Shown: piece after piece, positions 1 to 1,086 of the stretch
How positions within the stretch are numbered: the first letter of the stretch is position 1
Layout: each line of letters opens with the position of its first letter
Source of the DNA: Escherichia coli
GTDB taxonomy: Bacteria; Pseudomonadota; Gammaproteobacteria; Enterobacterales; Enterobacteriaceae
Assembly: GCF_003334815.1 (NCBI RefSeq)
Contig: NZ_QOWO01000107.1
Length of the DNA stretch: 1,086 bases
Strand: one strand, 5' to 3'
Notes under the pieces: generated by a model
What the model was told of the DNA's origin: nothing
Database searches by the model: none
What the model saw: the letters and a program-made list of their open reading frames with translations, nothing else
Translations under genes and position numbers: made by a program

Positions 1-68
1 TTCGCCAGGAACGACCGGAACGCGGCATCATGCGGCGTGGGCGTTGTGGTGTTTTTCTTCTTACTCAC
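1..68 (-). CDS. Rpn/YhgA-like PD-(D/E)XK recombination-promoting nuclease / putative transposase; N-terminal 22 codons only, the gene runs off the left edge of the window
   Basis: Minus-strand reading from GTG at 68..66 gives VSKKKNTTTPTPHDAAFRSFLA. The TPHDxxF(K/R)xFL motif is the conserved N-terminal signature I recognise from E. coli Rpn proteins (e.g. RpnA ...TPHDAVFKQFL...). GGAGG lies at 77..73, 4 nt upstream of the GTG. An in-frame stop at 86..84 makes this GTG the first possible start. The start overlaps the upstream stop as GTGA. Only 22 residues are visible, so the family call rests on a short motif. Confidence 0.6.
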   Translation of the reverse strand, partial: MSKKKNTTTPTPHDAAFRSFLA

Positions 69-77
69 GGTTCCTCC
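8..77 (-). repeat. Downstream copy of the same repeat; this is the apparently functional RBS, GTG and 5' coding end of the Rpn-like gene
   Basis: This is the partner of 520..589 (see that feature). It retains the intact TPHDAAFRSFL motif. The repeat may extend left beyond the window, since similarity is lost only in the last ~7 nt visible. Confidence 0.7.
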
Positions 78-454
78 ATCAAATCAGCAGCATCGCAGCA
101 ATCATCGTCCAAATCCCCACAACCAAGAGGACAGCAATTGCGATCAAAGCCGTGACAACAATAGCCACGTTCTGCGTCACGGCGTATTTCTTCTGCAATC
201 TCTTCAGCGGAAAGGTAATCAAACTCCTCACGGGCCAGTTCCAGGACCAGCAGATGTTGTTCTGTCGGCAATGTAGACACAAAATTATCAATAGCAGCAC
301 TCAAACGTCGCTGATATAGCTCATAAACAAGACCACAACGGTGCATTAGTTCTTCGGATAATAGTTCCAGTTTTGAGCGAACGCTGTCAGCATTGAAAGT
401 GACTTCATCAGATGACATCTGAAAATCTTTGTCAGTGTCAAAACAAGACTTCAT
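65..454 (-). CDS. Hypothetical small acidic protein, 129 aa, with a helical-looking body and a Cys-rich acidic C-terminal tail; no family recognised
   Basis: This is the lower part of the 65..676 ORF in the supplied track. ATG at 454..452 is preceded by AGGAG (465..461) with a 6-nt spacer. The product is MKSCFDTDKDFQMSSDEV...GYCCHGFDRNCCPLGCGDLDDDCCDAADLMEEP. By hand count it has about 31 D/E versus 12 K/R. The stop TGA at 67..65 overlaps the GTG of the downstream Rpn-like gene. An alternative in-frame start is GTG 580..578 with AGGAGG at 590..585, giving 171 aa. The track's GTG at 676 has no SD and overlaps the upstream gene by 32 nt, so it is disfavoured. Confidence 0.65.
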   Translation of the reverse strand: MKSCFDTDKDFQMSSDEVTFNADSVRSKLELLSEELMHRCGLVYELYQRRLSAAIDNFVSTLPTEQHLLVLELAREEFDYLSAEEIAEEIRRDAERGYCCHGFDRNCCPLGCGDLDDDCCDAADLMEEP

Positions 455-519
455 TTTTATCTCCTGCCCGTCCGGGCCCTGAATGAAAGAAAACCTGTTT
501 CCCTTCTCTGTTTTTTTAT

Positions 520-589
520 GGAACAGGAGGAATCCGGTACCATGCGACATAGACGTCATGATGTTTTTCATCTTGCTCACGGTTCCTCC
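520..589 (-). repeat. Upstream, degenerate copy of the rpn-like translation-initiation region and first ~20 codons (relic 5' gene end)
   Basis: There is an ungapped alignment to 8..77 at a constant offset of 512 nt. It matches 53/70 positions by hand count. It includes an identical 14-mer CTCACGGTTCCTCC (576..589 = 64..77) and 25/27 identity over 563..589 vs 51..77. The encoded peptide VSKMKNIMTSMSHGTGFLLF compares with VSKKKNTTTPTPHDAAFRSF, so the conserved PHD has become SHG. Confidence 0.7.
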
Positions 590-610
590 TGGTAAAGTAC
601 CTGAACATAT

Positions 611-638
611 CCTGCCACCTGCACAGACAGACGGCAGG
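611..638 (-). other. Imperfect hairpin in the 64-nt spacer between the basic-protein gene and the repeat/acidic gene
   Basis: CCTGCC (611..616) pairs with GGCAGG (633..638). An inner CTG (619..621) pairs with CAG (628..630), with a 2x2 internal loop and a 6-nt apical loop. No U-tract follows on the minus strand, so it does not look like an intrinsic terminator. Confidence 0.3.
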
Positions 639-644
639 GGGTAA

Positions 645-911
645 TCAGTGGCAGACCCGTTCAATTTCAAGCGCACGGAGCAGGTGCCCCCACTCGCTGA
701 CTTTCATGGCGGGGATACGCACCCGCTTCCGCTCACTGCAGCGTCTGGCGATATGACCGCCCATCGCCAGGACGTCCGGGTTAATCTCATCCGGTGCCAG
801 TTCCTGGCGTCTGAAGCGGGTATGGCGGTGCAGGGGTTTGTTCTCCCGCAGGCACTCTTCACGCAGACGCTTTACATATTCAGCCGTTGCAAAGATAATT
901 GATGGTCTCAT
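645..911 (-). CDS. Hypothetical small basic protein, 88 aa, Arg-rich; possible nucleic-acid-binding or regulatory protein, family not recognised
   Basis: This is the lower part of the 645..1007 ORF in the track. ATG at 911..909 is preceded by GGAG (923..920) with an 8-nt spacer. The product is MRPSIIFATAEYVKRLREECLRENKPLHRHTRFRRQELAPDEINPDVLAMGGHIARRCSERKRVRIPAMKVSEWGHLLRALEIERVCH. By hand count it has 19 R/K, 5 H and 12 D/E. An alternative start is ATG 1007..1005, which overlaps the upstream stop as ATGA and gives 120 aa. That version has no SD, and its extra 32 codons lie over two strong stem-loops. Confidence 0.6.
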   Translation of the reverse strand: MRPSIIFATAEYVKRLREECLRENKPLHRHTRFRRQELAPDEINPDVLAMGGHIARRCSERKRVRIPAMKVSEWGHLLRALEIERVCH

Positions 912-971: not shown

Positions 972-1004
972 GAGAAAGGCAGGGTTTATCGCCCTGCTTT
1001 TTTT
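972..1004. terminator. Intrinsic-terminator-like hairpin with A/T tracts on both sides (potentially bidirectional)
   Basis: The stem GCAGGG (979..984) pairs with CCCTGC (992..997) around a 7-nt loop. On the plus strand it is followed by T7 (998..1004), a textbook terminator. On the minus strand it is preceded by A7 and followed by CTTTCTCT, a weaker U-tract. It sits immediately after the upstream gene's stop codon. Confidence 0.5.
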
Positions 1005-1086
1005 CATTCCGGACAGCGACGCAGTGCCAGCGCGAGCGCTTTCATCTTCCAGCCTTCCGGCGTGCGGTACATCACCTTCCAGTAGC
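1004..1086 (-). CDS. C-terminal end of an upstream gene of unknown function (partial, enters from the right edge of the window)
   Basis: The minus-strand frame starting at 1084 reads YWKVMYRTPEGWKMKALALALRRCPE and stops at TGA 1006..1004. Its codons are mostly enterobacterial-preferred (ctg, gcg, ccg, gaa, cgc). The competing open frame contains cta, agg and gga. A hairpin follows 7 nt after the stop. Only 26 codons are visible. Confidence 0.45.
   Translation of the reverse strand, partial: YWKVMYRTPEGWKMKALALALRRCPE

Follow-up and report, generated by a model that had tools for sequence, protein, structure and literature searches.

A decaying duplicate of the rpn initiation region as the probable scar of a ccgAII insertion in the leading region of IncI-complex plasmids

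We analyzed a 1,086-nt stretch of DNA (hereafter the window) from Escherichia coli contig NZ_QOWO01000107.1 (assembly GCF_003334815.1), in which two copies of the initiation region of an rpn nuclease gene bracket ccgAII, a small gene for an acidic protein. Many E. coli and Salmonella plasmids, NC_022996 (pO26-CRL125) among them, match the window at 100% identity, and it corresponds to the region that IncI-complex conjugative plasmids transfer first, the leading region. An annotated copy, NZ_AP018803 (locus L001), has it between nikA/nikB (annotated as MobA/relaxase) and ardA-psiA-psiB. All genes of the window are on the minus strand, in the order ygcA, ygdA (encoding a basic protein), ccgAII, and rpn, also called ygdB (R64-style names). 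The repeat is probably the scar of a single old insertion at this site, a reading carried by the repeat itself, an exact insertion-deletion polymorphism, its polarity, the pattern of decay in one copy, and the identities of the genes.

The rpn gene enters the window at its left edge (1..68, minus strand, GTG start codon at 68..66), runs past it, and encodes a 308-aa protein (WP_000038345.1; RefSeq PGAP). This protein matches PF04754 (E=4.6e-78, 262 bits versus a cutoff of 21) and TIGR01784 (177 bits versus a cutoff of 52). Its N-terminus, VSKKKNTTTPTPHDAAF, agrees with other Rpn starts, and the T-P-H-D-x-x-F motif is kept, as in four other paralogues. By sequence it clearly belongs to the Rpn/YhgA-like PD-(D/E)XK nuclease family. 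The Shine-Dalgarno (SD) sequence of rpn, GGAGGA (77..72), falls within the last codons of ccgAII (65..454, minus strand), and the ccgAII stop codon TGA (67..65) overlaps the rpn GTG as GTGA. The acidic ccgAII product has 129 aa (WP_001317525.1; RefSeq PGAP), and its gene has its own SD, AGGAG, at about 461-465.

The live copy of the repeat (8..77, minus strand) comprises the rpn SD, GTG, and codons 1-20. The upstream copy, here called the relic (520..589, minus strand), has an SD at 589..584, a GTG at 580..578, and 20 decayed codons. Between the copies, ccgAII is accompanied on the same strand by a linker (78..104) that encodes the C-terminal extension of its product (…DCCDAADLM-EEP) and joins the cassette to the rpn SD on the right-hand side, and by a 5'-untranslated region (UTR) element (455..519), a GCCC-GGAC-GGGC hairpin followed by the SD, which makes up the left-hand part of the inserted material. 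Upstream of the relic come the old ygdA-rpn intergenic region (590..644, minus strand), which once served as the rpn 5'UTR and has a 12-bp hairpin at 611-638, and then ygdA (645..911).

The two copies align without gaps over 70 nt at a spacing of 512 nt, with 53 matches (76%). A gapped local alignment on the longer locus L001 yields exactly this ungapped block, and its local score of 36 compares with 8.7±1.3 (maximum 14) for 300 shuffles. On both sides of the block, identity drops to chance (1-5 matches per 10-nt bin); 5' of the two SDs there is no relation (9 of 30 matches). At the core, 64-77 and 576-589 share the same 14-mer, GGAGGAACCGTGAG on the minus strand. The rpn copy translates as VSKKKNTTTPTPHDAAFRSF and the relic as VSKMKNIMTSMSHGTGFLLF, so that TPTPHD stands against TSMSHG and PHD has become SHG. 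A repeat search and our own count thus bear out what a preliminary description of the window had reported, namely the gapless 53/70 match with its identical 14-mer, copies that both start at the SD with unrelated sequence upstream, and the loss of PHD upstream. That description also allowed that the similarity might lack significance beyond the 14-mer. Outside the 14-mer there are 39 matches in 56 positions (binomial p=3e-12), and 27 of the distal 42 nt match when taken alone (p=1e-7), so the similarity is not confined to the SD-start core. Within 13 kb of the IncI locus there are only these two copies; no further copy of the 14-mer or of the UTR element was found there.

We identified 2,045 records matching the window in a plasmid collection, of which 497 cover at least 80% of it. 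Records sampled from the remainder show a two-piece match spanning 573-575 bp, that is, 1,086 minus 512. By this sampling, about three-quarters of the roughly 2,000 related plasmids are without exactly the 512 nt between the repeats, and ygdA is then followed directly by rpn. The same picture is seen in E. coli RefSeq genomes, where 417 of 1,431 records reach a window coverage of 80% or more. Five cassette-less loci were fetched, from IncI1/B/O, IncK2/Z, IncI-gamma/K1, and IncFIA cointegrate plasmids. In all five, rpn starts at the equivalent of window position 68, with its GTG 65 nt after the ygdA stop codon. The sequence equals the window minus 78-589, or minus any 512-nt frame in the shared 14-mer, with the junction inside the 14-mer; the live copy (8..77) has one to two differences in one locus (L004) and none in the other four. 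Loci in which the gene for the basic protein directly precedes rpn, which the preliminary description had proposed as a check, were therefore found; they outnumber the cassette-bearing loci, and the two states differ in length by exactly one repeat period.

The direction of the change is indicated by more distant relatives. An IncFIB Salmonella plasmid (L016), in which ygdA is ~26-33% diverged, has a ygdA-like gene and then rpn, and no cassette. Its spacer agrees with the cassette-less alleles at three of four distinguishing stretches, including the SD-adjacent block atctcaccaGGAGG. In IncI2 (pMCR-1-type) plasmids, a stub of the rpn 5' end has a flank of the cassette-less kind. Because this outgroup and the IncI2 stub share the cassette-less state and flank, the cassette is a derived insertion; its arrival therefore duplicated the rpn SD, start codon, and first 20 codons. 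Beside the SD, five of five cassette-less loci have cagacatctcacca and six of six cassette-bearing loci have caggtactttacca. There are nine fixed differences in ~45 nt of the spacer (590..644) between the two states. Since the insertion, both the relic and the former rpn 5'UTR have thus changed along the lineage that carries the cassette, with these nine differences in the spacer and 17 over the 70 nt of the relic. The earlier proposal that the acidic gene came to the 5' end of rpn as a cassette is thus supported by both the exact period of the polymorphism and its outgroup polarity. The further expectation that the cassette would also occur beside other rpn paralogues is not borne out: full-length matches to this ccgAII allele adjoin rpn in IncI-complex plasmids only. 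An IncN locus and the untyped plasmid CP088859.1, the only other non-IncI locus opened, have ccgAII without rpn.

The insert appears to be a mosaic of a UTR module, a ccgAII core, and a short linker. The UTR element (455-519) is 80-82% identical to regions upstream of two unrelated genes in the IncX1 plasmid pB182_37 (L009 2501-2573 and 3414-3482), and its 3' part occurs at three sites in an IncI2 plasmid at ~74% (L011, near 1949-1990, 4171-4212, and 4904-4945). The ccgAII core has ~80% DNA identity to a non-IncI ccgAII (L010), and this homology stops at …GACGATGAT, 23 nt before the rpn SD. Both cassette junctions, at 519/520 on the left and 77/78 on the right, are sharp. A repeat search detected two inverted-repeat pairs (469-492/998-1021 and 42-56/326-340), but these do not form terminal inverted repeats of the cassette, whose ends (78-104 and 455-519) gave none. 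The 512-nt cassette codes for ccgAII only, with no transposase inside it. As a separate observation, the ccgAII 5'UTR (a small GC hairpin, SD, and ATG) resembles a miniature "conserved upstream" element, which stands before several unrelated leading-region genes.

We propose that the ancestral order was ygdA, a 55-nt spacer, and the rpn SD and GTG. A mosaic cassette of 5'UTR module, ccgAII, and linker would have entered ~60 nt into rpn, and ~70 nt of target, from the SD to codon 20, would have been duplicated, regenerating an intact rpn downstream of the insert. The duplication may have occurred in one step, for example via a staggered break or a double template switch. The downstream copy (8-77) would then be the working rpn start, with its SD in the last ccgAII codons and its GTG in the GTGA overlap, and rpn translation could be coupled to that of ccgAII. 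The upstream copy (520-589) would persist as a pseudo-start whose codons have decayed regardless of codon position.

The relic is closest to the rpn gene of the plasmid itself. Over 61 nt from the start codon it matches IncI rpn at 44 positions and four other rpn paralogues, from chromosomes and one large plasmid, at 24-36. All four paralogues keep TPHDAAFR, which the relic has lost. Its 17 substitutions fall 4/8/5 on codon positions 1/2/3 and every conserved residue has been removed, which argues for pseudogene decay, not for a diverged functional paralogue. With only 20 rpn-derived codons, PHD changed to SHG, and 12 of 20 residues replaced, the relic lies outside the Rpn family and amounts to a gene fragment. 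The segment, together with the flank upstream of it, aligns in a single piece to the ygdA-rpn junction of cassette-less plasmids. On the strength of the 44/61 match and the pseudogene-like decay, duplication of the plasmid's own rpn initiation region is favored over exchange with a paralogue. Of the two origins suggested by the preliminary description, then, duplication of the 5' end with a relic initiation region left behind fits and recombination between rpn paralogues does not. Seven of the 17 substitutions are C-to-T on the coding (minus) strand. We considered strand-biased deamination for these (from gene orientation relative to oriT, the minus strand would be the complement of the transferred strand) and set it aside, as the sample is too small. 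Among chromosomal rpn paralogues, one lies 48 nt downstream of ssb in E. coli UMNK88 (L019, NC_017641 4899929-4900701), an arrangement reminiscent of a plasmid or integrative and conjugative element leading region integrated in the chromosome.

Two cassette-bearing types were identified, the window type (period 512) and a commoner R64-like type (period 498), in which the relic is 14 nt shorter at its distal end. Both share the derived bases of the relic (AGC, ATG for AAG, ATC, TCT, GGT), so the relic is older than their split. Between the two alleles, ccgAII has a synonymous divergence (dS) of 0.13 and a nonsynonymous divergence (dN) of 0.034. The relic-to-rpn distance is 0.24 raw and 0.29 after Jukes-Cantor correction. 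For rpn, dS between cassette states is 0.057, equal to the value within states; for ygdA, dS is 0.10. Variable sites in ygdA and rpn show no grouping according to whether the cassette is present. This is most simply read as homogenization of the flanks by homologous recombination among IncI-complex plasmids, with only sites tightly linked to the indel keeping the old divergence. One plasmid (L012, NZ_AP027255, IncFIB/IncI-gamma) combines a 498-type relic with a window-type UTR and ccgAII (no ccgAII differences from the window), and this recombinant allele indicates homologous exchange inside the cassette as well. A run of A residues at the relic/UTR junction (window 512-519, minus strand) occurs as A6, A7, or A8 among metagenome contigs, including L032 and L058; these variants change the repeat period to 499 or 511 and shift the frame between the relic open reading frame (ORF) and ccgAII. 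The states of 512 nt, 498 nt, or no cassette provide a clean presence/absence marker for IncI-complex lineages.

The decay of the relic is uneven. The SD-proximal 28 nt have 2 changes and the distal 42 nt have 15 (Fisher p=0.009), so that the SD, GTG, and first five codons have changed far less than the remainder. An RNA hairpin is predicted over the relic SD (524..591, minus strand), with its 5' arm at 591..580 (CAGGAGGAACCG) and its 3' arm at 536..524 (CGGAUUCCUCCUG). For the 512-period allele the minimum free energy (MFE) is -24.1 kcal/mol, with a z-score of -2.8 (1 of 200 shuffles was as good) and a probability of 1.0 that the SD is paired; for the 498-period allele the corresponding values are -24.4 kcal/mol, -2.9, and 0.78. 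The predicted hairpins pair with the mutated distal part of the relic and their 3' arms differ, CGGAUUCCUCCUG in the 512 type versus GGUGUCUCC in the 498 type. For rpn in cassette-less plasmids, a weaker stem (CCAGGAG with codons 20-22) is predicted, with an MFE of -23.6 to -23.8 kcal/mol, z=-0.85 (one locus), and an SD pairing probability of 0.6-0.7. The rpn copy downstream of ccgAII has an MFE of -18.9 kcal/mol, z=+0.8, and an SD pairing probability of 0.35.

In these models the insertion point cuts the 3' arm of the native rpn stem, so that the live rpn copy would lose masking and gain the GTGA overlap. The relic hairpin may reflect selection to mask a strong orphan ribosome-binding site, or a residual leader function. 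A coherent but unproven scheme is that the insertion swapped a self-masked rpn initiation site for coupling to ccgAII and that the orphan SD was masked again. The hairpin prediction draws on two independent relic alleles, too few for a real covariation test. If the relic hairpin or the stop-start coupling is functional, expression of the Rpn toxin would be linked to a leading-region protein in the first minutes after conjugation.

The preliminary description suggested that the repeat might still support deletion of the cassette. We queried ~2,030 plasmids with synthetic deletion junctions, the products expected from recombination between the repeats, for both allele types. All top matches were two-piece and cassette-bearing, the best one-piece cassette-less match was at 95.7%, and no recent precise cassette loss was found in this collection. 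A metagenome scan for the relic-specific start recovered 37 contigs, with the rpn copy 482-512 nt further on wherever the contig was long enough; none of the 37 had a chimeric relic/rpn start. Neither data set therefore speaks for continuing deletion, which is unsurprising given 76% identity with a perfect core of only 14 nt.

Four other explanations for the repeat were weighed against a single old insertion. It might reflect chance or convergence between two strong ribosome-binding sites and the A-rich early codons after them, with common descent reaching no further than the 14-mer. Identity is indeed highest in the SD-start core (26/28), a type of sequence able to converge, but the matches outside the 14-mer and in the distal 42 nt keep a fixed register, the alignment score is far above the shuffle maximum, and the relic and its flank are colinear with the true ygdA-rpn junction in cassette-less plasmids. 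From these alignments the reading appears effectively refuted, and we give it next to no probability. Alternatively, the relic might derive from another rpn paralogue, illegitimate or homologous exchange between the rpn genes of a plasmid and a chromosome, or of two plasmids, having placed ccgAII and the 5' end of a foreign rpn in front of the resident one. This would account for a relic that is 24% diverged (36% distally), far above the flanking genes; E. coli chromosomes hold several rpn paralogues that are ~72-76% identical here, and the AGC second codon of the relic is found in other rpn starts too. Against it are the better match to IncI rpn, the TPHDAAFR motif kept by all the functional paralogues and not by the relic, the concentration of changes on codon positions 1 and 2, and an upstream flank that is plainly the IncI ygdA-rpn spacer. 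Moreover, an exact scan of 185,579 species-representative genomes for a relic-specific 20-mer gave two matches, where about one random match is expected; one, in Vibrio ruber, was inspected and is not an rpn start, and the other, in a Ferruginibacter genome, was uninspected. We consider a paralogue source very unlikely.

If the cassette-bearing state were ancestral, the cassette-less state could have arisen through slippage or recombination between the repeats, in their 14-28 nt of near identity. The allele classes do differ by the exact repeat period (512, or 498 in the R64-like allele), and the junction falls within the shared 14-mer, as a repeat-mediated deletion would leave it. The outgroup and the IncI2 stub nevertheless have the cassette-less flank without the cassette, the SD-adjacent bases separate the two states completely (cagacatctcacca versus caggtactttacca), and no deletion-junction query gave a one-piece match above 95.7% identity in the ~2,030 plasmids. 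Deletion is thus quite unlikely; conceivably it occurred very early, before the flanks diverged. Finally, the upstream copy might work in ccgAII expression, either as an N-terminal extension (a 171-aa ORF) or as a leader or upstream ORF with an SD-masking hairpin that gates ccgAII, and rpn by coupling, after plasmid entry. The SD and GTG are intact in both alleles despite ~36% decay beside them, the relic ORF is open up to or into ccgAII in both, stable hairpins with different 3' arms are predicted in both (z about -2.8 each), and automated gene callers select the 171-aa ORF (cluster P0001). Yet the relic GTG opens an in-frame fusion with ccgAII in the window and a 42-codon upstream ORF in the +1 frame in the 498 type. 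Because the frame differs between alleles and shifts again with the A6/A7/A8 variants, the 171-aa fusion ORF is best seen as coincidental; by chance alone, roughly one in three sequences would keep a frame open over its ~22 non-rpn codons. The extension is absent from other CcgAII proteins, and a hairpin that buries the SD argues for silencing, not use. A working leader is therefore doubtful, although it retains more than a token share of our belief.

Several points also weigh against the favored insertion model. Divergence in the relic exceeds that at synonymous sites of the flanking genes by a factor of 3-5, so the model requires either homogenization of the flanks by recombination or accelerated change in the relic. 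The polarity of the insertion depends on one outgroup plasmid and the IncI2 stub. No convincing microhomology was seen by eye at the two junctions. No intermediates were found, neither ccgAII without a regenerated rpn nor a fresh, 100%-identical duplication, so the one-step duplication model rests on parsimony. The claims about hairpins and coupling come from thermodynamic prediction, and the putative SD-masking stem of native rpn is not significant relative to shuffles (z=-0.85).

The nearest analogue that we identified is the set of CUP (conserved upstream) repeats and CUP-controlled genes (ccg) in the leading region of IncN plasmids of the pKM101/R46 type (here pKC396), in which direct repeats with the upstream and initiation region of a gene bracket leading-region genes; ccgAII itself belongs to this gene set. 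CUP copies in the IncN locus L023 end exactly at the start codons of ardB, ccgD, ardA, and ccgAI. They are ~430 nt long, present in 4-5 copies 5' of the start codon, and 84-98% identical in the last ~125 nt. The present repeat is unlike them in being 70 nt long and in two copies, starting at the SD, extending 20 codons into the ORF, and having one decaying copy and one live gene; this distinction is drawn from architecture. Also unlike IncI, ccgAII in IncN is not beside rpn.

An insert flanked by a direct duplication of its target, with one copy restoring the broken gene, resembles the target site duplications of insertion sequences and transposons. Such duplications are usually 2-14 nt long. 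Here the duplication is 70 nt, no terminal inverted repeats were found, and there is no transposase in the insert. There is also a resemblance to translationally coupled pairs with a GTGA/ATGA stop-start overlap, in the shared GTGA and in an rpn SD placed among the final codons of ccgAII. The usual pairs differ in that here the overlap was made by the insertion, and in cassette-less plasmids the rpn start lies 65 nt beyond ygdA and has an SD to itself, which may be self-masked. Overall, this is a well-resolved rearrangement scar of an ordinary kind, not a new kind of system. It does provide a base-by-base record of how ccgAII, a candidate establishment or anti-defense gene, was slotted before rpn, a toxic nuclease and defense gene, in clinically important plasmids.

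Zhong et al. 2023 (PMC10400941) described toxic RpnL proteins with intragenic RpnS antitoxins that carry variable four-residue repeats, duplicated downstream RpnSs genes, and phage defense by plasmid Rpn, and speculated that RpnL may initiate recombination that makes partial rpn duplicates. The plasmid rpn studied here similarly carries four-residue repeats and is followed by an RpnSs-like 73-aa ORF. This ORF, directly 3' of rpn (L001 4921-5142, minus strand), is 52% identical to Rpn residues 244-306 (E=2e-15) and has no GRME repeats. Given the relic at one end and this ORF at the other, rpn has partial duplicates at both ends. The duplicates of Zhong et al. are of the C-terminal antitoxin domain and are expressed, whereas the relic comes from the 5' initiation region, is non-coding in effect, and has a foreign gene between it and rpn. 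Rpn itself (L001 5142-6068) has three GRME repeats near its C-terminus. Across L001 and loci L003-L008 and L012-L015 the rpn coding sequence is 879, 903, 915, 927, or 939 nt long, in 12-nt steps, with one off-step length of 924 nt; these differences agree with the variable repeat numbers described for RpnL/RpnS.

An independent rpn 5' stub occurs in the IncI2 pMCR-1-type plasmid NZ_CP030766 (L011 ~2500-2540, minus strand), with the same SD and GTG and ~9 rpn-like codons (GTGAGCGAGAAGAAAAACACCACGACG) before unrelated sequence. The ORF upstream of it ends …PEEP* in a GTGA overlap, as ccgAII does (…MEEP*), which suggests that the rpn 5' end is a recurrent breakpoint. Separately, IncI plasmids and the distant IncFIB outgroup (L016 3168-3290) differ by just 2.8-9% over the initial ~100 nt of rpn, synonymous sites included, and in the same comparison the upstream spacer is 22-30% and the remaining rpn gene 10-47% diverged. 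This low divergence could reflect a gene-conversion patch or nucleotide-level constraint at the rpn 5' end. A broader idea is that the 5' end of plasmid rpn is a preferred capture or breakpoint site for leading-region cassettes, possibly cut by Rpn, and that the orphan initiation region is reused as an SD-masking leader hairpin or upstream ORF that sets early post-transfer expression of a coupled CcgAII-Rpn pair. The relic, the IncI2 stub, and the unusually conserved start of rpn fit preferred breakage there; we nevertheless hold the idea to be unlikely, and an Rpn-mediated origin of the insertion is speculation.

The acidic protein can be assigned by homology to the CcgAII family of plasmid leading-region proteins. 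Homologues named CcgAII were found with E-values from 1e-44 (P0011) to 1e-20 in Enterobacteriaceae, Lonsdalea, and Proteus, and the alignment has invariant C99, H101, C108, P109, and G113, with the C-x-H-G…CCP-x-GCG motif kept. No Pfam or NCBIfam model exists for the family. An AlphaFold2 model (predicted local distance difference test score, pLDDT, of 78) has four helices and a Cys-rich knuckle, and fold searches gave no informative PDB match or structural neighbor. We also considered that the protein might be a remnant of the Rpn C-terminus or RpnS, from an internally deleted rpn, and rejected this (BLASTP against Rpn E=2.3, no TIGR01784 match). An article on pO26-CRL125 (PMC3817090) places ccgAII next to a "transposase" gene in that plasmid and states an antirestriction function for it by citation only; the literature mentioning ccgAII that we consulted has no description of the present repeat. 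Plasmid records matching window 440-660 by blastn number 2,718, and none of 60 sampled rows came from Klebsiella, Enterobacter, or Citrobacter, the genera of most CcgAII-named records.

Other CcgAII proteins have 101-106 aa, and the IncI protein has extra extensions at both ends, each with pLDDT <50. The C-terminal extension occurs in IncI alleles only in the protein alignment and looks like the product of read-through to the rpn start (78-104). In the N-terminal extension (window 400-454, codons 1-18), FDTDKDF resembles the true N-terminus TFDTDKF of other CcgAII proteins; the homologous position in the IncI protein comes later, at TFNADSV, which hints at a second, in-frame duplication of the 5' end.

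Automated gene calls in public assemblies give a 171-aa protein that starts at the relic GTG (window 65-580; cluster P0001, 200 member sequences). The possibility, raised in the preliminary description, that 520..589 encodes a conserved long N-terminus of the acidic family is contradicted by these shorter relatives and by a reading frame that is not conserved between alleles, and we rejected the 171-aa fusion as a real protein for the latter reason. Gene callers that choose the relic GTG thus yield a spurious 171-aa "CcgAII." In some GenBank records ccgAII is named "cobalamin biosynthesis protein CbiX" and ygcA is named "PndC"; neither these names nor the 171-aa calls have backing from family models. 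An Rfam search of the window returned only a chance match to an internal ribosome entry site (E=0.45). The ygdA product (WP_001247861.1; RefSeq PGAP), a basic protein of 88 aa encoded on the minus strand, has no match in Pfam, NCBIfam, PADLOC, or PHROG. The 3' end of ygcA (1004..1086, minus strand) closes the window, and its 144-aa product matches phrog_1987 (E=1e-20).

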